NCBI GenBank assembly: GCA_043814315.1
Contig: JBDRKE010000023.1
Span: 15,576 to 79,575, forward strand
Source: Candidatus Omnitrophota bacterium
GTDB lineage: Bacteria; Omnitrophota; Gorgyraeia; Gygaellales; Profunditerraquicolaceae
Direction of reading: 5' to 3'
Length of the DNA stretch: 64,000 bases
The stretch's first letter is position 1. Every line of letters begins with the position of its first letter. Shown here in pieces: positions 4,036 through 64,000 of this stretch. A program made the translations under genes and the position numbers. The notes below the pieces were generated by a model that worked only from the letters and a program-made list of their open reading frames with translations, was not told the DNA's origin and did no database searches.

Positions 4036-4073
4036 TTGCTCTTACTCCGTTCGTAAGTTTACAGTTACCTCAC

Positions 4074-4268
4074 TCACTGCAAACTCTTTTTCTCATTTAA
4101 TAGTGTTTTTATTCGTGCGATATCTTTCCTGGTCACCCGAAACTCATGCGGTTTTTCCACGCGCCCCCCATATCGCTGGGCGTTCAGTTTAAAGAGGTGC
4201 TCTTTGAGCGACTTTTCTTTTTCCCGTAGTTCTTCTTTGGATAGACTGCGCAACTCTTTGATTTTCAC
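4074..4268 (-). CDS. rpmC: 50S ribosomal protein L29
   Basis: MKIKELRSLSKEELREKEKSLKEHLFKL typical uL29. Confidence 0.9.
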   Translation of the reverse strand: MKIKELRSLSKEELREKEKSLKEHLFKLNAQRYGGRVEKPHEFRVTRKDIARIKTLLNEKKSLQ

Positions 4269-5423: not shown

Positions 5424-5449
5424 TATTTTAACTCCTTGAAATAAAGTTT

Positions 5450-5551
5450 AAAATTCCGAATTCCAAACGCCAAATTCCAAACACAGAGCTTCGGACATTG
5501 GGATTTGTTTGGGATTTGTTTGGGATTTGTGATTTGTAATTTGGGATTTTT
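5450..5551. repeat. Word-built imperfect hairpin (ccaaa / tttggg words), rplV|rpsC gap
   Basis: A/C-rich arm aaattccgaattccaaacgccaaattccaaacac opposite the tandem ttgggatttgt x3 arm. Confidence 0.85.
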
Positions 5552-5564
5552 CGTGTCATTATAT

Positions 5565-5897: not shown

Positions 5898-6157
5898 TTA
5901 ATGAGCGCTAAACTTACGAAAGCACGAAGTGCAACGTAAGTTTATGCGCGAATTAACCCCCCACCACTTTTTAAATACACTTGAGATATCTTACGGTATT
6001 GCTCCCCCTCCTACCCCATTCTGTAAATCACACGCTTGTTACAAAAAGTGGTGGGGGGTAAGTTCAGACATAAATTTATGTTCGCTTGCCGCACAAGCGG
6101 CACACCGGCTGTTCCGATACAGCCGGGTGCTCGCTCCATAAATTTAGTCCTCACTTA
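5898..6157 (-). repeat. Junction element family 1, full copy (modules C-B-A), rpsS|rplV
   Basis: Shares TAAGTGAGGAC..., the ACCCCCCACCACTTTTT/AAAAAGTGGTGGGGGGT stem, and GCGCAT-AACTTACG..CGTAAGTT-AGCGCTCATTAA with the other copies. Confidence 0.9.
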
Positions 6158-6447: not shown

Positions 6448-6467
6448 ATCTCCTCACTTTCACTCGT

Positions 6468-6596
6468 CAAAATCCAAATGTCAAAGCACAAAGCTTAAAA
6501 TGCGCACAAAACACAAAATCCAAAACAATCAGGCTTTTATTAGGATTTTGAATTTTGAATTTATTTTGTGCTTTGAATTTTGTCATTTGAATTTAT
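6468..6596. repeat. Word-built imperfect hairpin (caaaat / attttg words), rplB|rpsS gap
   Basis: caaaatccaaatgtcaaagcacaaa... opposite ...tttgtgctttgaattttgtcatttgaattt. Confidence 0.85.
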
Positions 6597-6598
6597 TC

Positions 6599-7430: not shown

Positions 7431-7637
7431 TTTAATGAGCGCTTAACTTACGAACACAATAGTGTTCGTAAGTAAATGCGCGAATTAACCCCCCACCACT
7501 TTTGCTATAACCTATGCTATATTGAAAGTGGTGGGGGGTAAGTTCGGGCATAAATTTATGTTCGCTTGCCGCACAAGCGGCACACCGGCTGTTCCGATAC
7601 AGCCGGGTGCGCGCTCCATAAATTTAGCCCTCACTTA
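7431..7637 (-). repeat. Junction element family 1, copy with short module-B loop, rplW|rplB
   Basis: Same modules; the module-B loop is only about 20 nt; overlaps the rplW 3' end. Confidence 0.9.
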
Positions 7638-9251: not shown

Positions 9252-9311
9252 GATTATTTTCCAGTTGTCCTGTTCGCCGGCTGACCTGTTTTGAACCGGC
9301 TCACAGGCTAA

Positions 9312-9369
9312 TCCTTCGACGGACTCAGGACACTTCGAAGAAGTACACTGAACGAAGCCGAAGTGCCGG
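9312..9369. repeat. Palindromic repeat family 3 (cttcg words), diverged copy, rpsJ|rplC gap
   Basis: tccttcgacggactcaggacacttcgaagaagtacactgaacgaagccgaagtgccgg; about 85 percent match to the reverse complement of 14656-14713 by eye. Confidence 0.75.
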
Positions 9370-9387
9370 AAAACCGGCTAACTTATT

Positions 9388-9687: not shown

Positions 9688-9742
9688 TCAATGAGCGCTT
9701 AACTTACGGAACACTAGTGACGTAAGTTAATGCGCGAATTGA
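9688..9742 (-). repeat. Junction element family 1, module A only, upstream of rpsJ
   Basis: aatgagcgcttaacttacg-loop-cgtaagttaatgcgcgaatt directly abutting the rpsJ ATG. Confidence 0.85.
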
Positions 9743-9773
9743 CTTCACACGAAAAGGAACTTTTCGTGTGAAG
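9743..9773. other. Perfect 14-bp hairpin after tuf
   Basis: cttcacacgaaaag-gaa-cttttcgtgtgaag; no U-tract follows in the mRNA sense. Confidence 0.8.
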
Positions 9774-10990: not shown

Positions 10991-11085
10991 ACTGATCCTC
11001 CTTCAATTTGCCCGTGTTTTACGGGCCAGCAAATTGATCCTTGACACGAAACATCCCATTACAACTCTCGCTTTCGTGTCAAGGA
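10991..11085 (-). repeat. Leader repeat family 2, upstream of tuf
   Basis: mRNA sense: 14-bp hairpin TCCTTGACACGAAA..TTTCGTGTCAAGGA, then TCAATTTGC-hairpin-GCAAATTGA, then AGGAGGA and ATG. Confidence 0.75.
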
Positions 11086-11173
11086 TAACTTCGGACATAT
11101 AAGTTATGTCGCTATCATCTTTTATAACTTGGTAAATATTTCGATATGGCCCCATAACTTATGTCCCCGCTTA
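11086..11173 (-). repeat. Family 1-related short form after fusA
   Basis: TAAGCGGGGAC-ATAAGTTATG-45-nt loop-CATAACTTAT-ATGTCCGAAGTTA; the fusA stop is its first TAA. Confidence 0.7.
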
Positions 11174-13270
11174 AAAACTTTTTCTTATGCCTGCCGCGGA
11201 AAATCCTCCGATAATTTTTTCTGCTATATGTGAAGGCACCTCGGCATAAAATGAGGGCTCCATTGTATAGGATGCGCGTCCCTGTGTCAAGGATCTTAAA
11301 GCCGTTGCGTAATTAAACATTTCACCTAAGGGGAGATAGGCGCGGATGACGCGGACATTGCCGCGCTGAATCAAGGAAACGATTTTTGCGCGCCTAGCGT
11401 TTAAATCACCGATCACCGTTCCCATATACTCCTCGGGCACAATCACCTCTATGTCCATAATCGGCTCCAATAAAATTGAGGCTGCTTTTTTTATGCCTTC
11501 GTTGAACGCCATTGCCGATGCCATCCGAAAGCTCATCTCCGAAGAATCCACCTCGTGATAAGAGCCGTCGGTCAGGACGACCTTGACATCCGTGACCGGG
11601 TAACCTACCAGACAACCGCTCTTGGAGGCCCCCCTGATTCCTTCTTCTACGGAACGTATAAATTCGCGGGGGATGGCTCCGCTCTTTATTTTTTCCTCAA
11701 AAGTGATTCCTAGCCCCGGCATCTCCTGCGGCTCCATTTCTAAAACTACGTGGCCGTATTGGCCGTGGCCGCCGCTTTGCTGGATGAATTTTCCCGTAGC
11801 TATAACCTTCTTGGTGATGGTTTCCCGATAAGCCACCTGAGGCGAGCCGACCTGCGCCTCAACATTAAATTCCCGCATAATCCTATCAATGGCTATCTCT
11901 AAATGCAACTGGCCCATCCCAGCGATAATCGTTTCCCCTGTCTCATGATTGTAGGTAACCCTGAAAGAAGGATCCTCCTCCGCCAATTTATGCAAAGACA
12001 TTCCTAAGCGCTCCTGGTCCTGCTTGGATTTCGGTTCAATGGCCTGCTGGATGACCGGCTCGGGAAAACGCATGGACTCTATTAGTATAGGATTGTCCTG
12101 CGTACACAGCGAATCCCCTGTTTTGGTTTCTTTGAGGCCCACGAAAACCGCGATATTTCCCGTATGCACGCTTTCAATAACCTCTTGGCGGTTGGCGTGC
12201 ATCCTCAGCAGTTTTGATACGCGCTCCTTAACCCTCTTAGAGGCATTCCACACATAATCTCCGGAGTTTAAAATTCCTGAATAAACCCGGACGTAATTGA
12301 TCCTTCCGACGTAAGGGTCGGTGGTGACCTTAAAACATAAGGCACAAAACGGAGCCTCATCTTCGGCCTGAATCTCTTCAAATTCACCGGTATCGGGATT
12401 TGTCCCTTTGATAGGAGGCACATCATACGGAGAAGGCAGGTAATCGCATATCGCATCCAGCAGAAGCTGTATGCCTTTGTTTTTAAGAGATGCCCCGCAT
12501 AAAACAGGAACGAATTTATTCTGGATAACGGTTCTGCGTATGGCCGCCTTGATATCGGCCGTATCTATCTTTTTCGCGTGGACAAAACTATCCATGATCA
12601 ACTCATCCACTTCGGCGATCTTTTCCAACAACACATCTCGTTCTTTTTGTACTGCTCCCCTAAAATCATCGGGGATCTCTTTGACTTCCCTTTGCGCGCC
12701 GACATCATCTTTATAGACGATTAATTTCATTTCTAAGAGATCAATGATGCCCTCTAAATACTCATTCTGGAGAAAAGGTATCTGGAGTGCCGCGGCATGC
12801 ACCCCTAGTTTTTTATGCATTTGGGTAATGGCATCCGAAAAATTGGCGCCGACTCTATCCATTTTATTTATAAAGGCTATGCGGGGAACTCCGTACCTGT
12901 CTGCCTGGCGCCAGACCGTTTCTGACTGCGGCTCTACCCCTCCCACGCCGCAAAAAACCACCACAGCGCCGTCTAAAACCTTTAACGATCTTTCCACTTC
13001 AATGGTAAAATCCACATGGCCGGGAGTATCGATAATATTAATATTAAAACCGCGCCATTGGCAGGTAGTGCAGGCAGCTGTTATGGTGATGCCTCTTTCC
13101 TGCTCCTGAACCATCCAGTCCATCGTGGCCGTGCCTTCGTCCACCTCTCCGATTTTATAGGTCCTGCCCGTGTAATAAAGGATACGCTCGGTGGTTGTGG
13201 TCTTACCGGCGTCGATATGCGCGATGATACCGATATTCCTAATTTTGTCTAATGCTATTTTGCGGCTCAT
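11171..13270 (-). CDS. fusA: Elongation factor G
   Basis: AHIDAGKTT, DTPGHVDF; 699 aa; str operon order; no SD, preceded by the family-1 element. Confidence 0.97.
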   Translation of the reverse strand: MSRKIALDKIRNIGIIAHIDAGKTTTTERILYYTGRTYKIGEVDEGTATMDWMVQEQERGITITAACTTCQWRGFNINIIDTPGHVDFTIEVERSLKVLDGAVVVFCGVGGVEPQSETVWRQADRYGVPRIAFINKMDRVGANFSDAITQMHKKLGVHAAALQIPFLQNEYLEGIIDLLEMKLIVYKDDVGAQREVKEIPDDFRGAVQKERDVLLEKIAEVDELIMDSFVHAKKIDTADIKAAIRRTVIQNKFVPVLCGASLKNKGIQLLLDAICDYLPSPYDVPPIKGTNPDTGEFEEIQAEDEAPFCALCFKVTTDPYVGRINYVRVYSGILNSGDYVWNASKRVKERVSKLLRMHANRQEVIESVHTGNIAVFVGLKETKTGDSLCTQDNPILIESMRFPEPVIQQAIEPKSKQDQERLGMSLHKLAEEDPSFRVTYNHETGETIIAGMGQLHLEIAIDRIMREFNVEAQVGSPQVAYRETITKKVIATGKFIQQSGGHGQYGHVVLEMEPQEMPGLGITFEEKIKSGAIPREFIRSVEEGIRGASKSGCLVGYPVTDVKVVLTDGSYHEVDSSEMSFRMASAMAFNEGIKKAASILLEPIMDIEVIVPEEYMGTVIGDLNARRAKIVSLIQRGNVRVIRAYLPLGEMFNYATALRSLTQGRASYTMEPSFYAEVPSHIAEKIIGGFSAAGIRKSF

Positions 13271-13539
13271 TTTTAATGAGCGCTTAACTTACGAATCCCG
13301 AAACTTCGGGATGAGTAAGTTAATGCGCGAATTAACCCCCCACCACTTTTTAAATACACTTGAGATTAAATCTTACGGTATATCTACCCCTCCCACCCCA
13401 TCTAACAAATCACGCGTTTGTTACAAAAAGTGGTGGGGGGTAAGTTCGGACATAAACTTATGTTCGCTTGCCGCAGGAGCGGCACACCGGCTGATCCGAT
13501 AAAGCCGGGTGCGCGCTCCATAAGTTTAGTCCTCACTTA
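13271..13539 (-). repeat. Junction element family 1, full copy, rpsG|fusA
   Basis: All three modules; the rpsG stop TAA is the first triplet of TAAGTGAGGAC. Confidence 0.9.
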
Positions 13540-14007
13540 CCACCTAAAGTGCGCAAAGGCCTTATTGGACTCTGCCATCTTATGCGTATCGTCTCTTTTT
13601 TTGATGACGGAACCTTCCCCCTTATGCGCGGCAATGATCTCATCCGCCAATTTTTCCTTCATGGAGCGGCCCTTCTTGTTTTTGGCAAAATCCCTGATCC
13701 AGCGCAAGGCAATAGAAGTTCCCCGCTCCTGACGCACCTCAATAGGAACCTGATAGGTTGCTCCCCCCACGCGCCGGGGCTTCACTTCCAATCGTGGCCT
13801 GGCATTATCCAGGGCCTTATGGAAAATCTTCAGCACATCGGGCTCATTAAGCTGTTTCTTGACTAAATCTAATGCCCCGTAAACCATCCTTTCGGCGATG
13901 GACTTCTTGCCTTCCAACATTACCATATTGATAAATTTGGCGACTATTTTACTGTTGAATATCGGATCAGGTAATAGTACTTTTTCTTGCGCTTTTCTTC
14001 TTCTCAT
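13537..14007 (-). CDS. rpsG: 30S ribosomal protein S7
   Basis: uS7-like (LPDPIFNSKIVAKFIN ... AFAHFRW); the stop TAA is the first 3 nt of the next element copy. Confidence 0.95.
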   Translation of the reverse strand: MRRRKAQEKVLLPDPIFNSKIVAKFINMVMLEGKKSIAERMVYGALDLVKKQLNEPDVLKIFHKALDNARPRLEVKPRRVGGATYQVPIEVRQERGTSIALRWIRDFAKNKKGRSMKEKLADEIIAAHKGEGSVIKKRDDTHKMAESNKAFAHFRW

Positions 14008-14267
14008 TTTTAATGAGCGCTTAACTTACGCACACAATAGTGTGCGTAAGTTAATGCGCGAATTAACCCCCCACCACTTTTTAAATACACTTGAGATATC
14101 TTACGGTATTGCTCCCCCTCCCACCCCATTCTGTAAATCACACGCTTGTTACAAAAAGTGGTGGGGGGTAAGTTCGGACATAAACTTATGTTCGCTTGCC
14201 GCAGGATCGGCACACCGGCTGATCCGATAAAGCCGGGTGCGCGCTCCATAAGTTTAGTCCTCACTTA
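14008..14267 (-). repeat. Junction element family 1, full copy, rpsL|rpsG
   Basis: All three modules; near-identical to the 5898 copy in the module-B loop. Confidence 0.9.
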
Positions 14268-14636
14268 TTTAGGCCTTTTGGCTCCGTATTTAGACCGTGA
14301 CTGTCTCCTTTGGTTCACTCCGGATGCATCCAGCGTCCCTCGCACAATGTGGTACCTGACGCCAGGCAGATCTTTGACGCGCCCCCCCCTCACTAAAACA
14401 ATAGAGTGTTCCTGTAAATTATGCCCTTCACCCGGAATATAAGACGTTACTTCTATCCCTGTGGTCAAACGCACCCTGGCAATCTTCCTTAAAGCGGAAT
14501 TCGGTTTCTTGGGCGTCATCGTGCGCACCTGAAGGCATACCCCGCGTCGTTGGGGACATGCTTTTAAAGCCGGCGATTTGGTCTTTTTCTTTTTTGAAAT
14601 TCTTCCTGATCGGATTAATTGAGCAATCGTTGGCAT
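14265..14636 (-). CDS. rpsL: 30S ribosomal protein S12
   Basis: MPTIAQLIR...[13 protein letters not shown] typical uS12. Confidence 0.95.
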
Positions 14637-14655
14637 ATTTTTGTTTGCTGATTTG

Positions 14656-14713
14656 CCAGCACTTCGCTTTCGCTCAGTGTCCTTCGGCGAAGTGTCCTGA
14701 GCCCGCCGAAGGA
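14656..14713. repeat. Palindromic repeat family 3, diverged copy, rpoC|rpsL gap
   Basis: Reverse-oriented relative to 9312-9369. Confidence 0.75.
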
Positions 14714-14758
14714 TTTTCCGGTTTGCCGGTTTAACCGGCTCATCGGCGAACTGGCTAA

Positions 14759-22303: not shown

Positions 22304-22373
22304 AATATTTAGTTTCCCAGTTTTCCGGTTGGCCTATTTGCCAATTAAACTGGCTAACCGGCGAACTGGCTAA

Positions 22374-25551: not shown

Positions 25552-25633
25552 AGCTTAATAGTTTTATTGGGTTAAGATGCGTATTAATTCAGCACTTATT
25601 TGATAATTATTCTGTCAAACAAATAAGCGCTGA

Positions 25634-25691
25634 ATAAGTTCGGGCTTATAAGTTACGTCGCCTCCGGCTCCGTAACTTATGCCCTCACTTA
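25634..25691 (-). repeat. Family 1 short form (module-C hairpin only) directly after tRNA-Thr
   Basis: mRNA sense TAAGTGAGGGC-ATAAGTTACG-loop-CGTAACTTAT-AAGCCCGAACTTAT. Confidence 0.8.
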
Positions 25692-25764
25692 AGCTGGAGA
25701 CGAGAATCGAACTCGTGACCCCGTCCTTACCAAGGACGTGCTCTACCGACTGAGCTACTCCAGC
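25692..25764 (-). tRNA. tRNA-Thr (anticodon GGT)
   Basis: Hand-folded cloverleaf: acceptor GCTGGAG/CTCCAGC, D arm GCTC-AGTCGGTA-GAGC, anticodon stem CGTCC/GGACG with loop TTGGTAA, T arm ACGAG-TTCGATT-CTCGT. 73 nt. Confidence 0.88.
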
Positions 25765-27786: not shown

Positions 27787-28851
27787 TCATGAGTTATCCT
27801 GAAGTATCTTGATGTACGCCTTCTTTTTGAGCCCATCAAGCCAATTCGAAAACTGCTCCTGCATTTTTAAATCGAAGAGATAGGCCTGGATTCTCACCTG
27901 GGCCTCTGAAAGGGTAAGTTGTCGCGGAGGTGTTATCTTGAGTAGTTTGAAAATGTAAAATTTGTTGTTGACTTTTAAGGGCTGAGAGTATTCGCCCGGA
28001 TTTAAGCTGCAGACCTTCTCTTCTATATCCTGGCGAAGCCCTCCATCGCGCTTAGCCACAATCTTATCGACTGTAAGAGGGAATCTTTTCTGTAAATCCT
28101 CCAATTTCTGTCCGGATCTAAACAGATTCTCGAACTCTCTGGCTGAGTCTTCCCTGTCTGTGTCCAGTATAACGATGTCGCATTCACGCTCTTCTCCAGT
28201 TACAAATTCCTTCATGTTTTTGTTATAAAAGGTCGTGACTTCATCGGGCCTGATCATGATTTTATCCTGGACGCTTTGCTCTACTATCATATACATAAGC
28301 ATTTGCTCCCGTATCTTCCTCTCCAGATCCGCCTGAACCAGGCCTTGTTTGGCTAAGTCATTCTGAAAATCTGCCTCCGAGGAGTAATGCCTTCTGATCT
28401 CGTTGATCTTTGCCTTGATCCTATTATCGTCTACCTTCACGTTTATGGCCTTGGCTTCCTGCAAAATAAGACGGTCCTCGATCAATTTCTCCAACAGATC
28501 CTTCCTTGTGGCCTCAATGCGTTTTTCGGCCTCGGCTTCATTATATTCCCTGGACAGCTGCAGCTGTGTAAAATTGAAAAAATCATTCAGGTCCCTCTGG
28601 GTAATTGCCTCGTTATTGACGACGGCAACGATTTTATCCTGCGCATAAACGGTAGAAATTCCAAATACAAAATTCCAAATAAGCACCAATACCCAAATGA
28701 CCAAAAAACGAAACTTAAAATAATGAAAAATTGGGATTTGGGTACCTCGACTCCGCTCGATACCAATGGTGAACGAAGTCGATCCATTGGAATTGGCATT
28801 TGTTTGGGATTTGGGATTTGGAAATTTGGATTTTAAGAAGTGATTAGTCAT
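27787..28851 (-). CDS. surA: SurA-like periplasmic chaperone / parvulin-type PPIase
   Basis: Signal-peptide-like VIWVLVLIWNFVFGISTVYA, SurA-N-like helical region and one parvulin-like domain; surA-pdxA-rsmA synteny. The first ~45 codons are repeat words, so the true start is probably downstream (e.g. TTG 28704). Confidence 0.6.
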   Translation of the reverse strand: MTNHFLKSKFPNPKSQTNANSNGSTSFTIGIERSRGTQIPIFHYFKFRFLVIWVLVLIWNFVFGISTVYAQDKIVAVVNNEAITQRDLNDFFNFTQLQLSREYNEAEAEKRIEATRKDLLEKLIEDRLILQEAKAINVKVDDNRIKAKINEIRRHYSSEADFQNDLAKQGLVQADLERKIREQMLMYMIVEQSVQDKIMIRPDEVTTFYNKNMKEFVTGEERECDIVILDTDREDSAREFENLFRSGQKLEDLQKRFPLTVDKIVAKRDGGLRQDIEEKVCSLNPGEYSQPLKVNNKFYIFKLLKITPPRQLTLSEAQVRIQAYLFDLKMQEQFSNWLDGLKKKAYIKILQDNS

Positions 28852-33906: not shown

Positions 33907-34030
33907 TGTAATCCTCCTTCAATGAGCCCCGCTGCATTCTTGCATTCGCAAGAATGCAAGAAGCGGGGCGAATTGATCCCGAGCCTGCGAAGAAAATTTC
34001 TTTGAAATTTTCGAGCGTTTAGGCGAGGGA
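33907..34030 (-). repeat. Leader repeat family 2, upstream of rpsP
   Basis: TCCCTCGCC..GAAAATTTC/GAAATTTTC hairpin..GGCTCGGGATCAATT-CGCCCCGC..GCGGGGC-TCATTGA-AGGAGGA. Confidence 0.75.
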
Positions 34031-36724: not shown

Positions 36725-36845
36725 AAATTCAAATGACAAAATCCAAAATTCAAAACAAATCCAAAATTCAAAACAAAAGATTTTCGATTTTTGATTTTGT
36801 GCTTTGTGCTTATTTTGTGCTTTGTTATTTGTTATTTGGATTTAT
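36725..36845. repeat. Word-built hairpin (caaaat / ttttg words), lipoprotein|hisF gap
   Basis: aaattcaaatgacaaaatccaaaattcaaaacaaatccaaaattcaaaac opposite gattttgtgctttgtgcttattttgtgctttgttatttg. Confidence 0.8.
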
Positions 36846-39501: not shown

Positions 39502-39525
39502 CAAGATCGGGTCTTGTAACTCATT
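39502..39525. repeat. 24-bp repeat caagatcgggtcttgtaactcatt in the hisD|hisB gap
   Basis: Identical to the reverse complement of 46924-46947. Confidence 0.85.
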
Positions 39526-39559
39526 GCCTATCAATCTGTTTCAAGTCCCGGTCTTGAAT

Positions 39560-46544: not shown

Positions 46545-46743
46545 ATTCGTATCCATGATTCCATACCATTAAGCACAGATGATCACAGATAGAAATCCGC
46601 ATAAAACCTTCCTTTAGAAACGGCAGATGACCACAGATAAAGGTAGCTTTAAAGGCGTATCTGCGATCATCAGTGTCTTTTAATCAGCGATCATCTGTGC
46701 ATATAGTGTTCCATAACTGTGAAAATAACACATTCGTATCCAT
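46545..46743. repeat. Palindromic segment bounded by 12-bp direct repeats upstream of the recA promoter
   Basis: attcgtatccat at 46545-46556 and 46732-46743; internal inverted repeat gcacagatgatc (46573-46584) / gatcatctgtgc (46689-46700). Confidence 0.75.
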
Positions 46744-46796: not shown

Positions 46797-46853
46797 ATAA
46801 GTTCGGACATAAATTTACGGAACGCCAGTGAGCGTAAATTTAGTCCTCACTTA
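46797..46853 (-). repeat. Family 1 short form in the recA/GGDEF divergent region
   Basis: TAAGTGAGGAC-TAAATTTACG-loop-CGTAAATTTA-TGTCCGAACTTAT. Confidence 0.8.
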
Positions 46854-46892
46854 ATAGACGCAGGAATAAAGCAAATCTAACGAAAAAATTTT

Positions 46893-47002
46893 CAAGATCG
46901 GGTCTTGACATCGCTTGGTAAACAATGAGTTACAAGACCCGATCTTGACATAACTCTAAAGACCCGGTCTTGACATAACTCTACGATCTTGACATAACTC
47001 TA
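46893..47002 (+). repeat. 15-bp inverted repeat followed by three tandem cttgacataactcta units
   Basis: caagatcgggtcttg (46893-46907) / caagacccgatcttg (46933-46947). TTGACA occurs at 46905, 46945, 46970 and 46989. Confidence 0.85.
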
Positions 47003-54290: not shown

Positions 54291-54401
54291 CTTAGCAAAT
54301 TCCAAGTACCAAGCTCCAAACTCCAAACTTTTATTTCGGTCATTGAGATTTCGGTTATTGGAGCTTGTTTGGGATTTGGAATTTGAAATCTGGGATTTAA
54401 C
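54291..54401. repeat. Word-built hairpin (ctccaaa / tttggag words), etfB|etfA gap
   Basis: caaattccaagtaccaagctccaaactccaaac opposite ttggagcttgtttgggatttggaatttgaaatctgggattt. Confidence 0.8.
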
Positions 54402-55184: not shown

Positions 55185-55435
55185 TAATGAGCAGATAACT
55201 TATATCGTTCTTAAGAACGATATAAGTTATAGCGTCCCTTATTTTATTTGTTTATCAGCGTCTGCGAATTAACCCCCCACCACTTTTTGAACAGACGCTT
55301 GAGATAAAATTTACGGTATGGCTTTTCCCCACGCCATATTTAACAAAACCCTCACTAGCTACAAAAAGTGGTGGGGGGTAAGTTCGGCCAGACAACTTAA
55401 CTTCACTATCGTTCGTTAAGTTGTGGCCTTACTTA
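55185..55435 (-). repeat. Junction element family 1, divergent full copy, acyl-CoA DH|etfB
   Basis: Same module-B stem; modules A and C have different sequence but the same hairpin positions. Confidence 0.85.
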
Positions 55436-56584: not shown

Positions 56585-56755
56585 TGAACCTCCTCAATTT
56601 GCCCTCTATAGCAGATTCAACAAATTGATCCCGAGTATCCAGCTACTGCTTCTGTGATACGAGGGACTAATTTGCCCGCATCCAGAGGTTCGTAAAATTG
56701 ATCCCGAGCTTACGAATAAAATTTCACTGAAATTTTCAAGTGTTTAAGCGAGGGA
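56585..56755 (-). repeat. Leader repeat family 2, two tandem units upstream of the acyl-CoA dehydrogenase gene
   Basis: Two units, each with TCCCTCG..CTCGGGATCAATT..GGGCAAATT. The distal unit is close to the rpsP copy in the GAAAATTTCA..GAAATTTT segment. Confidence 0.75.
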
Positions 56756-56765
56756 TTTCAGTTCG

Positions 56766-59478: not shown

Positions 59479-60231
59479 TTAATTTGATACTTCCTTCTTA
59501 ATTTTACTGATCTTAGAAGGCAATATGACAATTTCAACTCTGCGGTTTTTCTGCATGTTCTCCTTTGTGTCATTTGCCACAACCGGCCGGAATTCTCCAT
59601 AGCCATTAGCAGAAAGCCTTGTCGGTTTTACCTTGCACTCATCAATAAGATAATGCAATACTGCTAATGCCCGCGCCGACGAAAGTTCCCAGTTTGACTT
59701 CCAACCCGAATATTTTATCGGCTGGTTATCCGTATGGCCTTCAATGGCAACATTGGAATTAGGGACATCGCGGTTTAAAACTCCAGCTACTTTCTGAAGT
59801 AATTCATTGCCGTCTCCACGGATTATGTCTTTTCCTGAATCAAAAAATACCTCAGACAAAAAAGTAATCACCAGCCCCCGCTCCGTCATCTCCAGCTTAG
59901 CTTTATAGTTTCCGATTTCTTTCTTAAGGGCATCTTCTAGCTCAAGTTTTGCTTTTTCAAGCTCGGAAAGCTCTCTATCCTTCTCTCTAACTACCTGCTC
60001 AACTTCTTTTGCCTTCTCTTTCTGAAGTTGTGCAATCCAAACCCGTAAATTCTGATTCTCGGCCTCCAGTTCATCAGCTCTTTCAGCTTTTTGAATATAG
60101 GCACATCCGGACATTGTAGATACTGCAAAAAACATGATAATTACAAATTTAATCTTCGTGGGTAAACCTCCTTTATTATAGCTGTTCGAAATATTTATAG
60201 GCATGTAATGACACCTTTGCAATAAATTCAT
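59479..60231 (-). CDS. OmpA/MotB-domain protein with coiled-coil region
   Basis: C-terminal OmpA-like block GHTDNQPI...NWELSSARALAV...NRRVEIVI; N-terminal lipobox-like MSGC; GGAGGA SD 7 nt upstream. Confidence 0.8.
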   Translation of the reverse strand: MNLLQRCHYMPINISNSYNKGGLPTKIKFVIIMFFAVSTMSGCAYIQKAERADELEAENQNLRVWIAQLQKEKAKEVEQVVREKDRELSELEKAKLELEDALKKEIGNYKAKLEMTERGLVITFLSEVFFDSGKDIIRGDGNELLQKVAGVLNRDVPNSNVAIEGHTDNQPIKYSGWKSNWELSSARALAVLHYLIDECKVKPTRLSANGYGEFRPVVANDTKENMQKNRRVEIVILPSKISKIKKEVSN

Positions 60232-60268
60232 AAGACTTTCCTCCTTTTATACATTCAAAATTATAATT

Positions 60269-61267
60269 TCATTTTGAATCTGTTTTAACTTTAAAAACAG
60301 ATTCCTTTTCATCATAAATCTCACCAAAAAGTTCTTCAAGCACATCTTCCATAGTTAAAACTCCCATATTTTGCCTTCGGCTATTCTGAACAATAAAAAG
60401 ATGCTGATGGTAAGCCTGAAACTTCTCTAAAAGCTTATCTGCCTTTTCATTCTCATCTACAAATATGGGTCTGGACATAAAATCTTGTACTTTTGCCTCG
60501 TAATTATCTTTGGCAATCTCTCTTAACAGAACTCTTTGTTGACATATTCCCGCAATATCGGAGATATCCTTTCCATAAACAACGATTCTACTGTATGGGG
60601 AATTAACTATCGCTTCTCTAACTTCAGAAAGTGACTTATCAGCTTGGAGGGCATATATATTTTCTATGGGCTTCAACATTTGGAATGCCCTTAAGTCGTT
60701 GAGCTTAAATACTCTGTTACACAGAGTTTCCTCATCAGTCTCAACGGTGCCTGCCGCCCTACCCAATTGAAGCATAATCTTTATCTCTTCTTCGGTTACT
60801 TTTGGTAGTTTAGATCCCCTTTTAAAGGGATTGGTGGCTAAAACTAAAATCCCAACCAGTGGCCTAAACAACCACATCAAGCCCTGCAATGGCTTTGCGC
60901 TTGCTAAACAAATCTCAACTTTGTAATGCTCCCCAACAGTCTTAGGTATTACTTCAGAGATAACTATGATAGCAAAGGTGATAACCGCAGAAGCAATGCC
61001 TAACCAATGCCTGCCGAATAAGTAAGTTACTCGCTGACCAACAAATATCGAACCAATTATATTAATACTGTTATTAAGTATAACGATTGTAGCAACAGCC
61101 AGATGGATATTCTCTTTAATAGAAAGGAGTGTTTTTGAGCCTTTGCGCTTTTGTTCAAATAGAATCCTTGCTTTTACCAGTGGAAGACTTAAAATAGCCG
61201 CCTCTACCATAGAGCAGATACCAGAAAGAAAAAGTATGCTTATGACTAATATTATCAGCGTTAACAT
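60269..61267 (-). CDS. CNNM/DUF21 transmembrane domain protein with CBS pair (HlyC/CorC-type divalent cation transporter)
   Basis: N-terminal 4-TM DUF21-like domain with EVIPKT, followed by a CBS pair; lacks the CorC_HlyC C-terminal domain. Confidence 0.75.
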   Translation of the reverse strand: MLTLIILVISILFLSGICSMVEAAILSLPLVKARILFEQKRKGSKTLLSIKENIHLAVATIVILNNSINIIGSIFVGQRVTYLFGRHWLGIASAVITFAIIVISEVIPKTVGEHYKVEICLASAKPLQGLMWLFRPLVGILVLATNPFKRGSKLPKVTEEEIKIMLQLGRAAGTVETDEETLCNRVFKLNDLRAFQMLKPIENIYALQADKSLSEVREAIVNSPYSRIVVYGKDISDIAGICQQRVLLREIAKDNYEAKVQDFMSRPIFVDENEKADKLLEKFQAYHQHLFIVQNSRRQNMGVLTMEDVLEELFGEIYDEKESVFKVKTDSK

Positions 61268-61288
61268 AGGATAATCTTTACTTTAATC

Positions 61289-61480
61289 TTAACCTCTCTT
61301 AATGAGGGGGGTTATCCATCCAATAATTATACCTATGAAAAGTGTCGAGAATATCACAATAGCCCTGCTCGTCCGGAATGACCAGAATAAAAATTGAATC
61401 TTAACAATTTCATAATTCTGCACAGCAAAAATTACTAAATGTAACAACAATATCAGAACAAGTATCCATTTCCAATTCAT
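61289..61480 (-). CDS. Small 2-TM membrane protein, LapA/DUF1049-like (tentative)
   Basis: 63 aa; paralogue of the partial ORF at 63853-64000 (QNYEIVKIQFLFWSFRTSRAIVIFSTLFIG vs QNYEVVRIKFLFWSFQTSRAIIIFSTLFIG). Confidence 0.55.
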   Translation of the reverse strand: MNWKWILVLILLLHLVIFAVQNYEIVKIQFLFWSFRTSRAIVIFSTLFIGIIIGWITPLIKRG

Positions 61481-61501
61481 TTATACAACTCGCATTATAT
61501 C

Positions 61502-62584
61502 TTAAAACCACCGTTTCCTTTTAAAATAAATTACCATCGTCAATACCACAAGAAACATTATGCCCCATGCAAATATATAGCCAAACCGCCAGGTAAGTTC
61601 AGGCATGTTTAGCTTTGAAAGACTAGGATCAAAATTCATTCCGTATATTCCGGCAATGAATGTTATGGGAATAAATATTGTCGCGATAATTGTAAGAACT
61701 TTCATTACCTCATTCATCTTGTTGCTTATGCTGGACATATAAATATCAAGCATTCCTGAAACCATATCCCGCAAAGATTCTATAGTGTCAATAACCTGAA
61801 TAGTATGGTCGTATAGGTCCCGCATATATACTGTTGTAGAATCCTGAAGCAAATCCGACTCTGTCCTTTGTAGCCCGCTAATTATCTCTCTCAATGGCCA
61901 TACGGATTTACGCAAGAATATCATATCTCTTTTTAAGCCTTGAATTATCTGTAATTTTTCAGTGCTCGGGTTCGCCACTAATTCGTCTTCCATATTTGCT
62001 ATTTTTTCACCCAGTTTTTCCAGTATTATAAAATAATTATCAACAACGGCATCCACTAAAGCATAGGCAAGATAATCCGCTCCGCTTTTTCTTATACGCC
62101 CTTTATTATCTCTAATCCTTCCTCTAATAGGATTGAATACGTCTCCTTCTTTTTCCTGGAATGAAATAACAAAATTTGCCCCAAGGATAAGGCTTACCTG
62201 TTCGGCTTTTGTCTCATCTTCCTTTTCGTCAAAATATAACATCTTCAAAACAATAAAAATATATTTGCCTGACTCCTCGAATTTGGGGCGTTGCAAAGTA
62301 TTCACTATATCTTCCAGAATAAGATGATGGATGTCAAAATGGGTACCAATTTTGCTGATAATATCTGTATCATGAAGGCCATCAATATTGATCCATGTTA
62401 TTGTAGGTGACTCTTTAAACGGAAAACATTCCTCAGCCTTCTTTAATTCTTTCTCCTGGAAATTCTCCTGATCGTAATCAATAATAGATATACGTGGCTT
62501 TTCAATTTTCTTCTCACCTACATATACAACGCTACCGGGAGCAAGACCAATTGTATTTGATATTTTTTTAACAAAATCTGACAT
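61502..62584 (-). CDS. corA: Magnesium/cobalt transporter CorA
   Basis: C-terminal two TM helices with the YGMNF signature; AGGAGG SD. Confidence 0.9.
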   Translation of the reverse strand: MSDFVKKISNTIGLAPGSVVYVGEKKIEKPRISIIDYDQENFQEKELKKAEECFPFKESPTITWINIDGLHDTDIISKIGTHFDIHHLILEDIVNTLQRPKFEESGKYIFIVLKMLYFDEKEDETKAEQVSLILGANFVISFQEKEGDVFNPIRGRIRDNKGRIRKSGADYLAYALVDAVVDNYFIILEKLGEKIANMEDELVANPSTEKLQIIQGLKRDMIFLRKSVWPLREIISGLQRTESDLLQDSTTVYMRDLYDHTIQVIDTIESLRDMVSGMLDIYMSSISNKMNEVMKVLTIIATIFIPITFIAGIYGMNFDPSLSKLNMPELTWRFGYIFAWGIMFLVVLTMVIYFKRKRWF

Positions 62585-62902
62585 ATGATCGCCTCCTACA
62601 AATATATTCGTTATCGAAAAAATACATGATTATAAAATTAAGACAGCCCCCCTCTGCTTTATCACTTAGGTAATCTTTTCTCCTATATGCTCTAGCGTAA
62701 AAGCAGTGCTACCTAACAACAAAAATATCATTATGAAAAGAATACTTCTTTTCATAATAAGGCCTTTTTGGCTCTTCTTTTTTTATAAACCACAGGGCCA
62801 GGAAATAAAAAATTACACCACAGATCAGTCCTCCGATTATGCTTCCGATAATAACAAGTCATAAAATTCTTAAAATCAGAACAATTGAAAGCAGAACAGT
62901 CC

Positions 62903-63103
62903 TTACCGAGCAGAAATCTGGATAAGATTTGCGAACATAGGAAGCGCTGCCAGTATGCCAATCTGTGCAGGATTTAAATTTAGAATCTTTAAAGCCAAGC
63001 CCATTAGAAAAATTCCGCCAGCCAATGAACCCATGACTACGAAAAATGCTCCATCGATAATTAAAAAATTAAGTGCTCTATCTTGTAGTTTTTTATCCAT
63101 CAT
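62903..63103 (-). pseudogene. Short membrane-protein fragment (MFS-like N-terminus), probably a gene remnant
   Basis: 66-aa ORF with 2 TM-like segments that ends abruptly. The next 150 nt contain further hydrophobic segments in other frames. Confidence 0.3.
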
Positions 63104-63825
63104 TATTTAGGAATTACGCATAATTCCTTTCTAATATTCTCTAATTTACCAAAACAAATAAGAGTGTCACCTAACATAATTTTGGTTTCCGCTGCAGGAT
63201 TAGGAGTTATCTCCTCTTTCCTTTCTACTGCTAAGACTGTTATATCATGGATTCTTAGGTCAGATTCAAATAAGGTTTTTTCTAGTATGAGGCTATCTTT
63301 GCATACCTCGATACTCGATACACCATAACCGCCGGTGGTAACTAGTAGTTCCTCAAAGGTTACCGGTTTAATAATTTCCTTCTTTACAATCCTTGCTCTT
63401 AATGCATCTGTTAGTTTTTTGGTAATGTTTGTGTGGGTAAAAAACCGGTAAATTGCATATATAGAGACTACAATAATTAACAAATTTATCCACGGTAATA
63501 AATTTGACGGAAAAACTAAATGCACAAATGGAATGGTAAACTTTGGCATAATAGTAGACGGCCTTAACGAATTAGCAAATGTTGCAATTACTGTAATAAG
63601 GCCTGCGTTTCCTAATACCATAAGGACCGAGGCAATGCGCCGCCTTTGAGGATTCCCGGTAATTAACTCTGCCTCTTTTGTAGTAAAACCTGTGCCGGAA
63701 AAACAAGATAAGGCCTGGAATTTTGCCAAAGACCATTCAAGACCGGTCAATTGAAACGCTATAGCACCGATTCTGACCACTATAAATGAGACTATAATTG
63801 CGAAAAGGAATAATAGTAAATTCAT
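63103..63825 (-). CDS. Membrane protein with C-terminal RCK_C (TrkA-C) domain, putative ion channel/transporter component
   Basis: N-terminal TM region with SGTGFTT; C-terminal ITVLAVERKEEITPNPAAETKIMLGDTLICFG matches the TrkA-C pattern; GGAGGA SD. Confidence 0.65.
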   Translation of the reverse strand: MNLLLFLFAIIVSFIVVRIGAIAFQLTGLEWSLAKFQALSCFSGTGFTTKEAELITGNPQRRRIASVLMVLGNAGLITVIATFANSLRPSTIMPKFTIPFVHLVFPSNLLPWINLLIIVVSIYAIYRFFTHTNITKKLTDALRARIVKKEIIKPVTFEELLVTTGGYGVSSIEVCKDSLILEKTLFESDLRIHDITVLAVERKEEITPNPAAETKIMLGDTLICFGKLENIRKELCVIPK

Positions 63826-63852
63826 GAGAATCCTCCTCTATTCACAATATTT

Positions 63853-64000
63853 TTATTGTCTTTTTATTAAAGAGATAAACCAGCCGATAAGGATGCCGAT
63901 AAAAAGGGTTGAGAAAATAATAATCGCTCTGCTTGTCTGAAAAGACCAAAAAAGAAATTTAATCCTAACCACTTCATAGTTCTGCGTAGTGAAAATAACT
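63853..64000 (-). CDS. Small membrane protein, LapA/DUF1049-like paralogue (C-terminal part; gene continues past window end)
   Basis: Manual translation ...TTQNYEVVRIKFLFWSFQTSRAIIIFSTLFIGILIGWFISLIKRQ*, closely similar to 61289-61480. Confidence 0.55.
   Translation of the reverse strand, partial: VIFTTQNYEVVRIKFLFWSFQTSRAIIIFSTLFIGILIGWFISLIKRQ

Follow-up and report, generated by a model that had tools for sequence, protein, structure and literature searches.

The intergenic element that recurs across the window (the whole 64,000-nucleotide stretch of Candidatus Omnitrophota DNA analyzed here) is an inverted pair of hairpin units around a variable central hairpin, an architecture like that of REPINs and BIMEs. 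The full element is 160 to 270 bp long and contains three hairpins, C, B, and A. Modules C and A are one imperfect hairpin unit of about 58 nt (H) in opposite orientations: the A-hairpin model matches short C modules on the opposite strand with 42 to 64 bits, and adjacent H pairs are GA-TC in 67 cases, TC-GA in 7, and tandem in 1. A preliminary description of the window had presented C, B, and A as three modules; the modular build stands, but C is an inverted A, and B is only one of several interchangeable hairpins, with at least six central-hairpin types and no universal conservation among them. We consider it probable that the element is a mosaic palindromic intergenic repeat of REPIN/BIME-like kind, that is, a recombining repeat rather than a dedicated regulatory RNA.

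Five full copies are present in the window, all on the minus strand and all in the order TAAGTGAGGNC, hairpin C, GNCCGAACTTA, hairpin B (arms ACCCCCCACCACTTT.. and ..AAAGTGGTGGGGGGT), TTAATTCGCNN, hairpin A, NNGCTCATTAA, and ATG. The copy at the rpsS/rplV junction (5898..6157; C at 6059-6157, B at 5956-6058, and A at 5898-5955) has a C of the long type with two apical subhairpins and a B loop of about 70 nt; the rpsS stop codon lies 2 nt upstream of the element, and the rplV ATG is at 5897-5895. The rplW/rplB copy (7431..7637; C at 7539-7637, B at 7488-7538, and A at 7431-7487) has a short B loop, CAATATAGCATAGGTTATAGC. Here the rplW stop codon (7626-7624) falls inside C, 11 nt into the element, so that the terminal residues of L23 are encoded by element sequence and its C terminus has been rewritten. 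At the rpsG/fusA junction (13271..13539; C at 13441-13539, B at 13335-13440, and A at 13271-13334) and the rpsL/rpsG junction (14008..14267; C at 14169-14267, B at 14066-14168, and A at 14008-14065), the first TAA of the element is the stop codon of rpsG and rpsL, respectively, and the next ATG is found at 13270 (fusA) and 14007 (rpsG). The fifth copy, between an acyl-CoA dehydrogenase gene and etfB (55185..55435), combines a short C (55379-55435), which is matched by the A-hairpin model on the plus strand with 63.9 bits, with B at 55272-55378 and a long A containing an extra insert (55185-55271). A partial element occupies the tuf/rpsJ junction (9688..9773, minus strand). It had been taken for a one-module version at 9688-9742; the A hairpin is indeed there, with a compensatory change (TCAAT/ATTGA) in its outer helix, but a separate B-like hairpin at 9743-9773, with arms CTTCACACGAAAAG..CTTTTCGTGTGAAG, precedes it.

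All of these copies had been listed previously with the same positions, strand, and module order, and the compensatory changes quoted at that time are present in them. The list was nevertheless too short, as five more related elements lie in the window, likewise on the minus strand. A divergent three-module element at the fusA/tuf junction (11003..11173; model match at 11091-11168 on the plus strand, E = 7e-4) consists of C' (TAAGCGGGGAC..GTCCGAAGTTA, 11086-11173), B' (TCCTTGACACGAAAG..CTTTCGTGTCAAGGA, 11038-11085), and A' (TCAATTTG..CAAATTGA, 11003-11037), followed by AGGAGG and the tuf ATG (10990). Upstream of rpmG, the element at 25583..25691 has a C-type H hairpin (25635-25691; A model, 60.7 bits, plus strand) that begins at the 3' end of a tRNA gene (25692-25764), and then a different central hairpin at 25588-25634 (TTCAGCGCTTATTTG..CAAATAAGTGCTGAA) and TTAAT. 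A lone C-type H hairpin, TAAGTGAGGAC..GTCCGAACTTA (46797..46854; A model, 42.5 bits, plus strand), is located in a divergent region upstream of a minus-strand gene starting near 46742. At 33918..34028, an A-type H hairpin (33918-33977) with an apical stem of the CCCCGCTTCTTGC type is preceded by a different module (TCCCTCGCCTAAACGC..GCAGGCTCGGGAT) and followed by AAGGAGG and the start of an S16-like gene. The fifth, a related mosaic of hairpin modules at 56585..56765, contains two TCCCTCG..CTCGGGAT hairpins and two CAATTT..AAATTG hairpins, lies upstream of an acyl-CoA dehydrogenase gene, and ends with AGGAGG and ATG.

The window contains 10 occurrences of the B-arm 15-mer, where 0.12 would be expected by chance, and RNA folding of the elements gave three independent hairpins (z = -8.4 and -10.1). 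The flanking genes had full-length NCBIfam matches (S19/L22, L23/L2, S7/EF-G, S12/S7, acyl-CoA dehydrogenase/EtfB, and S10), which confirmed the location at junctions of essential operons. Since these matches are full length, the ATGs adjoining the elements are true gene starts, and the element does end directly at the next ATG, as had been proposed.

The H unit has an A/U-rich outer helix of 5 to 6 bp, a 2x2 internal loop that does not vary, a G/C clamp of 4 bp, a one-sided bulge of 2 to 3 nt, an inner helix with the conserved sequence AUAACUUAYG/CRUAAGUUAU, and a variable tip. Read on either strand, the 5' unit has GA/GA loops (module C) and the 3' unit has UC/UC loops (module A), and these unpaired bases are invariant. 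Pairing in H, previously argued from the compensatory changes, was borne out by strong covariation in an independent set of 50 hairpins: 96.3% of the alignment cells were paired, versus 82.2% in shuffles; double changes were found in 12 of the 20 base pairs; and the covariation score (0.396 versus 0.124) was reached by none of 500 shuffles. Besides, an outer-helix pair that was not selected by the search pattern was paired in 85%, versus 44%. Outside H, L4 covaries with L3 and not with L1 (TAAGT), which is constant while L4 varies. This rules out a closing stem that would pair the 5' end UAAGUGAG with the 3' end CUCAUUUA in a four-way junction. Long-range pairing between C and A, as in a REPIN-type hairpin, was ruled out by inspection, the clamps of C and A being mismatched.

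Using an exact 20/21-mer from the element against genomes and metagenomes, we recovered 100 further loci (10 from genomes and 90 from metagenomes), with none in viral contigs. Nine of the 10 genome loci are labeled Candidatus Omnitrophota, and the remaining one is unclassified; the repeat family has so far been seen only in Omnitrophota. The H covariance model had 256 matches at E <= 1e-3 in 640 kb, essentially all of them intergenic. As the preliminary description had suspected, no known family was recognized: none of the 4227 Rfam models matched the element, whether at E <= 10 or at the gathering threshold, the window as a whole gave two tRNAs only, and the best matches in a subthreshold scan of 13200-14350 had E >= 1.1. 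No match to the element was obtained in plasmids and phages, nor by blastn in 5,426 E. coli genomes (20,395 records). The Omnitrophota genome papers that we consulted do not mention intergenic repeats, and we could not find a published description of the family.

The copies are dispersed and cleanly inserted at stop codons of co-directional genes. The nusG/rplK junction is empty in three genomes (ATA TAG T ATG; GTT TGA A ATG; ACG TAA AAGCTCG ATG) and filled in locus L004 (ATA TAA[GTGAGG..CTCATTTAA]T ATG), and this single comparison of filled and empty junctions reveals an element inserted cleanly at the stop codon. Which junctions are occupied varies between the window and syntenic loci of about 70% identity, and also between genera; many junctions of the same operons are without an element, and the rpsL/rpsG, rplW/rplB, rpsS/rplV, rpsD/rpoA, and rpmG/tRNA-Trp junctions carry an element in different genera. 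The closely related strains compared showed no presence/absence polymorphism. Spread and homogenization of the repeat might involve recognition of single-stranded hairpins by a putative enzyme (HUH/RAYT-like or other), gene conversion from copy to copy, or both. No ORF with the HUH..Y..NP motif of a RAYT-like transposase was detected in 704 kb (1- to 14-kb fragments per genome), and the ORFs in these genome fragments that have elements on both sides are housekeeping genes, with no transposase candidate among them. No target-site duplication was demonstrable. Duplication of TAA is contradicted by copies whose left triplet is TAA and whose right triplet is TGA (the two triplets are unlike in at least 12 copies) and by the L3:L4 covariation, in which the TAA/TGA at the 3' side changes together with the internal L3 arm. 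The co-orientation with genes, the invariant GA/UC loop bases, and the junctions shared across genera are also compatible with an RNA or DNA function under selection.

The placement relative to coding sequences is precise. The upstream stop codon is the first TAA of the element in 45 of 71 copies and a TGA at +4 in 7, and the downstream ATG lies 1 to 6 nt past CTCATT in 47 of 73 copies, with a peak (n = 27) at 4 nt; the few antisense copies have the same punctuation pattern as the sense copies. Starts adjoining the element tend to be without a Shine-Dalgarno (SD) sequence, with 9% reaching <=-6 kcal/mol versus 38% of generic starts. Elements also adjoin the 5' and 3' ends of tRNA genes within 0 to 2 nt. 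The common orientation with the genes, earlier regarded as invariable, holds at about 9:1 across the 100 loci (54:5 and 45:6 for the canonical element) and is not absolute. Co-directional junctions are not enriched (about 89%, versus a base rate of 91%). Since 94% of the genes at each locus are on one strand, gene orientation and replication orientation are inseparable.

We infer that a recombining repeat could survive within essential operons by supplying stop codons of its own, TAA and then TGA 4 nt on. Once transcribed, the three self-contained hairpins would loop out the 160 to 270 nt and might thereby keep the upstream stop codon and the downstream AUG (or SD plus AUG) about as near to each other in space as they were in the original TAA-N-ATG junction. 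Any influence on mRNA stability or processing, which is known for REP, ERIC, and Correia elements, would likely be a secondary consequence. The same geometry, which re-creates the TAA-N-ATG junction, has been considered as a structure-bridged translational coupling ("shunt"), in which terminating ribosomes would be passed to the distant AUG and the SD-like 5' end UAAGUGAGG might help. Indeed, the essential genes rpsG, fusA, rplB, rplV, and rplK start 1 to 4 nt past a stable hairpin without an SD sequence, and L1 pairs with the anti-SD at -7.3 kcal/mol. However, antisense copies, which are without the SD-like end (-1.9 kcal/mol), still have SD-less starts, and the anti-SD affinity of L1 is ordinary in comparison with shuffles (7%). 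SD use is modest in these genomes anyway, a strong SD of their own follows about a quarter of the copies, no gene start follows about a fifth, and the same elements flank tRNA genes. Nor does a relay ORF cross the element. We thus regard coupling of this kind as very unlikely. Two more specific candidates were rejected: a split SD sequence supplied by L1, as the antisense copies without the L1 SD behave alike, and a relay ORF running from an AUG in C to the UAA of L4, as only 2 of 49 end there.

At the DNA level, elements are reshuffled in two ways: the B loop is inverted within its arms, and whole hairpin interiors are exchanged, the latter between near-identical strains. With the direction from C to A as reference, B loops are found both ways round (ratios of 19:7 and 10:1, and of about 15:11 for short loops), in some cases within a single contig. 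Between L069 and L085, which are 84% identical overall with mostly matching flanks near the element, the B loop is inverted; between L041 and L052, which are 91% identical overall with nearly identical immediate flanks, the interior of A has been replaced, with borders sharp at the clamp. Moreover, the folding energy is nearly strand-symmetric (difference of -1.8 kcal/mol; p = 0.026), and the numbers of G-U pairs on the two strands (4.09 versus 3.65) are not significantly different. The element does form three stable hairpins, but because its structure is strand-symmetric and its dynamics are at the DNA level, the structured-RNA reading of the preliminary description is not the best supported one. 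Any coding function, including that of plus-strand ORFs, is disfavored by the B-loop inversion and the differing frames.

A rival idea is that of a dedicated RNA punctuation, in which the hairpins would serve the processing and insulation of polycistronic transcripts. Cuts at the hairpin bases would be made by an endonuclease, either RNase III-like or specific for the conserved internal loops, leaving C as a protective 3' hairpin on the upstream mRNA and A as a protective 5' hairpin downstream, or else a near-leaderless mRNA with its AUG at 1 to 4 nt. Bacterial RNase III substrates are duplexes of about 20 bp, and the element stems, about 20 bp long, are predicted to fit the duplex of RNase III sites of the T7/Correia type. 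The boundaries of the element coincide with functional ends, the stop codon lying in the first helix, the AUG 1 to 6 nt past the last one (47/73), and tRNA ends directly alongside. Invariance of the unpaired loop bases, the orientation bias, several junctions kept across genera, and the scarcity of SD sequences at adjoining starts (9% versus 38%) are also in its favor. Against it are the strand symmetry without a sense-strand excess of G-U pairs and the flipping of B loops and swapping of modules, which imply that most of the RNA sequence is free of sense constraint. Antisense copies are tolerated with identical punctuation, occupancy is patchy even within one operon, and co-directional placement does not exceed its base rate. 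On balance we think this reading rather unlikely. A bolder form, that mobile structured RNA modules are excised at the hairpin bases and represent a bacterial counterpart of mitochondrial "tRNA punctuation," is an analogy to which we give a low probability. If true, upstream mRNAs would have a 3' hairpin cap and downstream mRNAs would be leaderless or nearly so, with the AUG 1 to 4 nt from the new 5' end, which would explain both the SD-less starts of essential genes directly past the element and the abutted tRNA genes. In a weaker version, terminating ribosomes may be passed over the looped-out hairpins to the next AUG.

Strand symmetry is also what would be expected if the elements were sites where proteins bind the chromosome, a role proposed for BIMEs (gyrase, IHF, and Pol I); palindromes in double-stranded or cruciform DNA would then serve supercoiling or nucleoid organization in highly transcribed operons. 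The B-loop families are conserved in sequence independently of orientation, and the conserved motifs of the element could be binding sites. This leaves the nucleotide-precise stop/start punctuation and the 9:1 orientation bias unexplained, however, and no binding motif, such as that of IHF, was recognized on inspection of the B loops; we see little chance that it is correct. Least credible of all are transcription attenuators, terminators, or promoters that would set the stoichiometry of operon products. UUAAAUU comes after the G+C-rich stem of B, one subtype of B has TTGACA on both strands, and a TTGACA-like sequence follows some copies, but the element strand has no terminator- or promoter-like sites above shuffle expectation, and an intrinsic terminator or a sigma-70 promoter was ruled out on this basis. 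In addition, there is no U tract, the long B loops are atypical of intrinsic terminators, and the essential downstream genes must be expressed.

The recombining-repeat reading can be compared with known systems, and the inverted H pairs support the likeness to BOX and BIME mosaics noted in the preliminary description. In the mosaics known as BIMEs in E. coli, REP units alternate in orientation and are joined by conserved linkers. The element resembles them in being a combinatorial mosaic built from few palindromic modules and cotranscribed inside operons; the resemblance is limited to architecture, namely H-B-H with several types of B and additional modules. Sequence similarity is absent, and the element is not an enterobacterial Y/Z REP (blastn, 20,395 E. 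coli records); its modules are larger, its H-B-H polarity is fixed, and it abuts coding sequences, whereas BIMEs lie in 3' UTRs. BIMEs can act as attenuators (PMC3049150). REPINs are inverted REP doublets mobilized by RAYT transposases in Pseudomonas and Enterobacteria (PMC3337134, PMC3116915). They share with the element a short imperfect palindrome whose polarity comes from internal asymmetry, the inverted doublet around a spacer, extragenic location at high copy number, and vertical persistence with within-genome homogenization. However, H is about 58 nt long with 20 bp, versus 20 to 40 nt for the REP unit, and while REP palindromes have a conserved GTAG or CGTC tetranucleotide at one end (PMC3733652), H ends in TAAGT/ACTTA or TTAAAT/ATTTAA, with no GTAG/CGTC at either end in the alignment and end profiles. 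The two H units also fold separately, without covariation between clamps, the spacer is a long interchangeable hairpin, the placement between stop and start codons is nucleotide precise, the phylum is a different one, and no RAYT, which in REPIN systems is a Y1 HUH transposase encoded by a single-copy gene with repeats on both sides, was found in the 704 kb of fragments.

BOX elements of Streptococcus pneumoniae have the structure boxA-boxB(n)-boxC (PMC3049150) and, compared by build and not by sequence, are similar in their three-module order, self-folding variable middle, inverted-symmetric terminal modules, and transcription within operons. In contrast to the single middle hairpin with a flip-flop loop described here, boxB forms tandem direct repeats, and BOX shows no systematic supply of stop codons or abutment of start codons; a relation in sequence is not expected. 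Correia (CREE/nemis) and ERIC elements are MITEs of Neisseria and Yersinia; Correia RNA is cleaved by RNase III, and ERIC alters transcript stability in an orientation-dependent manner (PMC2649163, PMC10969869). They too are palindromic, cotranscribed, and form long RNA hairpins, and by analogy RNase III cleavage or transcript-stability effects of the Omnitrophota elements are plausible as secondary effects. Nevertheless, those MITEs are single long hairpins made from terminal inverted repeats with a TA target duplication, whereas the Omnitrophota element has three separate hairpins without a closing stem (L1 and L4 do not covary), and no duplication could be demonstrated. The ends of IS200/IS605-family elements and of their nonautonomous derivatives (PATEs) likewise have subterminal imperfect hairpins, no target duplication, and strand-specific behavior, and a further possible likeness is that a flanking triplet is read by an internal "guide," as L3 here pairs with the TAA/TGA beside the downstream gene. 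This is a resemblance only, as no TnpA/TnpB or cleavage motifs were identified and the element is pseudosymmetric, in contrast to the asymmetric IS200/605 ends. Integron attC sites, in which R''/R' core sites (RYYYAAC..GTTRRRY) enclose an imperfect hairpin behind each cassette ORF, do not fit: there is no GTTRRRY core at the element ends, and the neighboring genes belong to the syntenic core rather than to cassettes.

This large repeat family, for which no description was found, belongs to a phylum known almost only from metagenomes and is a possible lineage marker for Omnitrophota. Its presence implies that the str/S10, rpoA, and nusG-rplK operons tolerate a very stable structure of 160 to 270 nt exactly between stop and start codons. 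It thus offers a natural test case for translation start beside a strong hairpin without an SD sequence, for how palindromic repeats choose and survive at stop codons, and for module exchange and inversion within a genome. Two incidental observations concern assembly and annotation: many contigs terminate inside elements, where the assemblies are broken, and spurious ORFs of 70 to 110 amino acids span elements and inflate ORF calls.

The five intervals first described as full copies (5898-6157, 7431-7637, 13271-13539, 14008-14267 and 55185-55435) share one modular build on the minus strand, reading in mRNA sense TAAGTGAGGNC, hairpin C, GNCCGAACTTA, hairpin B with arms ACCCCCCACCACTTT / AAAGTGGTGGGGGGT, TTAATTCGCNN, hairpin A and NNGCTCATTAA, with the ATG of the next gene 0 to 4 nt past NNGCTCATTAA in all five. 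The claimed one-module copy (9688-9742) is indeed an A hairpin, directly preceded by another hairpin. The flanking genes had been named correctly (S19/L22, L23/L2, S7/EF-G, S12/S7, acyl-CoA dehydrogenase/EtfB and S10), and the ATGs touching the element are real starts, because NCBIfam matches begin at residue 1. RNA folding gave three independent hairpins (z = -8.4 and -10.1), and a 15-mer of the B arm occurred 10 times against a chance expectation of 0.12. All six copies of the preliminary description are present, but that count was too low: the window also holds a divergent three-module element at the fusA/tuf junction (11003-11173), C-type hairpins at 25635-25691 (directly after a tRNA) and 46797-46854, an A hairpin that follows a different module (33918-34028), and a related hairpin mosaic (56585-56765).

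Every module is a self-contained hairpin, and the hairpins extend to the element's ends. The consensus is TAAGT-GA-GGNC[inner stem]GNCC-GA-ACTTA for C and T(T/C/G)AA(A)T-TC-GCNN[inner stem]NNGC-TC-ATT(T)(A/G/C)A for A. We found that the stems are kept by compensatory change, as proposed earlier, using an alignment of 50 A-type hairpins from loci other than the window: paired cells amounted to 96.3% versus 82.2% in shuffled alignments, both sides had changed in 12 of 20 pairs, and the covariation score (0.396 versus 0.124) was matched by 0 of 500 shuffles, while pairing dropped to 21 to 41% in slid controls. Four clamp pairs were preset by the search pattern, and the inner helix and outer pairs were free of that selection; one unselected outer pair was 85% paired versus 44% shuffled (A-T 52, T-A 41, C-G 15). 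A closing stem between the element's two ends was excluded, because the 3' end covaries with an internal arm while the 5' end is constant. Besides, when searched with a covariance model for hairpin A, the minus strand gave the A modules and the plus strand the short C modules, the latter at 42 to 64 bits. Thus, C and A, both present as hairpins as described, are not separate modules but one unit (H) in opposite orientations, and owing to this symmetry the element reads "GA hairpin, B, UC hairpin" from either strand. Across all loci, adjacent H units were GA-type then TC-type in 67 cases, the reverse in 7 and tandem in 1. The outer helix of the 5' unit also covaries, since a second subfamily has CAAAT-GA-AGCC..GGCT-GA-ATTTG there. 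H is a covarying hairpin, and the element is an inverted H-B-H build.

The B stem was present in the full window copies, as claimed, but it has no one conserved sequence among loci, where we identified the types CCCCCCACCAC.., CCCTTGACA.., CCCCACACCCAG.., CCCAGCACT.., CCCGCCATG.. and two-hairpin versions, all starting (A/T)CCC and finishing GGG(T/A). Counted relative to the C-to-A direction, the two loop orientations stood at 19:7 in one long-loop family, 10:1 in the other and about 15:11 among short loops, and single contigs can hold both orientations. A comparison of loci L069 and L085 (84% identity overall, element-adjacent flanks mostly matching) shows an exact inversion of the loop enclosed by the B arms. 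Between L041 and L052 (91% identity overall, immediate flanks nearly identical), an unrelated hairpin of a type present in other copies has taken the place of the interior of hairpin A, and the exchange is sharply bounded at the clamp. The modules are interchangeable and invertible. One element (L019 6462-6650 / L044) has a 183-nt B module with the long loop and one arm tandemly duplicated (..CCCACCACTTTTAGAGACAAACG.. twice). Both strands of the B subtype (A/T)CCCTTGACA...TGTCAAGGG contain the -35 hexamer TTGACA (L009, L017, L018, L021, L060 and L088; window 11038-11085), and a TTGACA-like sequence follows several canonical copies; promoters were assessed by a consensus scan of one region.

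We counted gene punctuation in 74 nonredundant canonical copies. The element's first TAA was the stop of the upstream frame in 45 of 71 copies, and the TGA four bases on served in 7. The claim that the element ends directly at the next ATG held for 47 of 73 copies, with the ATG 1 to 6 nt after CTCATT (27 at 4 nt, i.e., TAA-N-ATG, and 10 at 2 nt), but not for 12 copies with the ATG at 10 to 17 nt and 14 with none within 20 nt. Immediate starts lacked a Shine-Dalgarno sequence, only 9% reaching -6 kcal/mol, whereas 94% of the more distant starts had a strong one (mean, -11.9). In the collected loci, 38% of generic gene starts and 22% of random positions reached -6, and Shine-Dalgarno use in these genomes is therefore modest. 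Elements also adjoin tRNA genes, with a gap of 0 to 2 nt. After the L29 stop at the rpmC/rpsQ junction (4036-4075), TGAGTGAGGTAACTGTAAACTTACGAACGGAGTAAG combines a start like the element's 5' end with a CTTAC/GTAAG mini-hairpin, and resembles a degenerate or miniaturized C module.

The orientation, said to be always that of the genes, is strongly biased at about 9:1 (54:5 with the downstream gene and 45:6 with local genes), but antisense copies exist. These punctuate alike, with the upstream stop within TTTAATGAGC and the downstream start 1 to 6 nt past CTCACTTA; stop/start abutment is precise in both orientations. Strand bias is extreme: in each locus one strand has the majority of genes (94%), and 91% of neighboring pairs are co-directional, so that placement between co-directional genes is the base rate, and the bias likewise makes gene and replication orientation of the elements inseparable. 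GC skew of the plus strand is negative throughout the window. The orientation bias, together with invariant unpaired GA and UC bases and junctions common to different genera, favors selection of some kind. As a rival reading, an RNA signal dedicated to punctuation or processing seems rather unlikely to us. Folding is nearly strand symmetric, which fits behavior at the DNA level, the sense strand being favored by only 1.8 of about 100 kcal/mol (P = 0.026), and the difference in G-U pairs (sense 4.09 versus 3.65) is not significant.

Insertion is clean at the stop codon, and nusG/rplK offers the cleanest filled/empty comparison. Empty junctions read ATA TAG T ATG (L082), GTT TGA A ATG (window) and ACG TAA AAGCTCG ATG (L001), whereas the filled one reads ATA TAA[GTGAGG...CTCATTTAA]T ATG (L004), indicating that the element entered at the stop codon and that no flanking base was lost. 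The last four codons and stop of L23 (...KISEG*) are encoded by the element's first 14 nt (7624-7637), whereas the orthologue in L093 ends ...KIEVK*; thus, insertion rewrote the L23 C terminus. Occupancy is patchy: rpsG/fusA is filled in the window and a 44-nt spacer in L093, rpsJ/rplC has an element in L093 and none in the window, and rpsL/rpsG, rplW/rplB and rpsS/rplV have one in both. A long C variant common to four window copies is absent from orthologous copies in another genus, implying either within-genome homogenization or repeated insertion. No transposase was found in a motif scan of 704 kb of genome fragments and on inspection of element-flanked open reading frames, no target duplication was found at element copies, and the close strains compared showed no filled/empty polymorphism. 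We infer that the family may have spread and been homogenized at the DNA level by hairpin-specific transposition by a putative enzyme, gene conversion, or both. It could persist in essential operons since it brings stop codons in two frames and since its three hairpins would loop out once transcribed, keeping stop and start about as near as in the ancestral TAA-N-ATG junction. Effects on transcript stability or processing, known from REP/BIME, ERIC and Correia elements (PMC3049150, PMC10969869, PMC2649163), would plausibly be by-products.

The dispersed repeat family spans the phylum Omnitrophota. A 21-mer across the C/B junction occurred in 10 stretches of a species-representative genome collection, 9 labeled Candidatus Omnitrophota and 1 an unclassified bacterium, and a 20-mer occurred in 90 metagenome contigs and matched no viral contig. 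Several element-bearing loci are syntenic with the window at about 70% identity, which places the window in an Omnitrophota genome; its L22 protein has no identical database entry. Many metagenome and MAG contigs stop inside or beside an element (L002, L003, L006, L013, L014, L033, L043, L064, L079, L086 and others), and the repeats are a probable cause of breaks in short-read assemblies of these genomes.

The suggested likeness to BOX/BIME mosaics, with no recognized family, agrees with the architecture: REPINs and BIMEs are closest (polar imperfect palindromes, inverted pairs and a mosaic build), and BOX likewise consists of three ordered modules, the middle one independent. However, the element lacks the GTAG/CGTC tag of REP/REPIN, sequence similarity to E. 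coli REPs, the paired terminal repeats and TA duplication of Correia/ERIC-type elements, and the core sites of integron attC. It also matches no Rfam family: at gathering thresholds, Rfam gave two tRNAs only in the window, and the best match over two element copies was no better than E = 1.1. Blastn against plasmids, phages and E. coli genomes gave no element match, and in a literature search Omnitrophota genome papers did not mention intergenic repeats. Its most unusual traits are that it punctuates coding and tRNA genes with nucleotide precision, whichever way it is oriented, and that it sits in the genome's most conserved operons.

Other structured spacers occur in the window. Other intercistronic gaps (rplV/rpsC, rplB/rpsS and further ones; 5424-5564, 6448-6598, 28783-28835, 36793-36845 and 54347-54399) hold a different filler, in which runs of CAAAUCC-type repeats precede complementary repeats of the GGAUUUG type, and the two can pair into long imperfect hairpins (fold z, about -2 to -4). 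A third kind, the AGCCGG/CCGGTT-rich repeat family D9, lies at rpoC/rpsL (14637-14758), upstream of rpoB (22304-22373) and at rpsJ/rplC (9252-9387), with fold z of -3 to -5. A short hairpin repeat, CAAGATCGGGTCTTG / CAAGACCCGATCTTG, without sequence kinship to the H unit, occurs at 39502-39557 and 46893-47000, several in tandem near 46900-47000. Besides, G+C content falls from about 0.46 to 0.35-0.36 over the window's final 4 kb (60001-64000).
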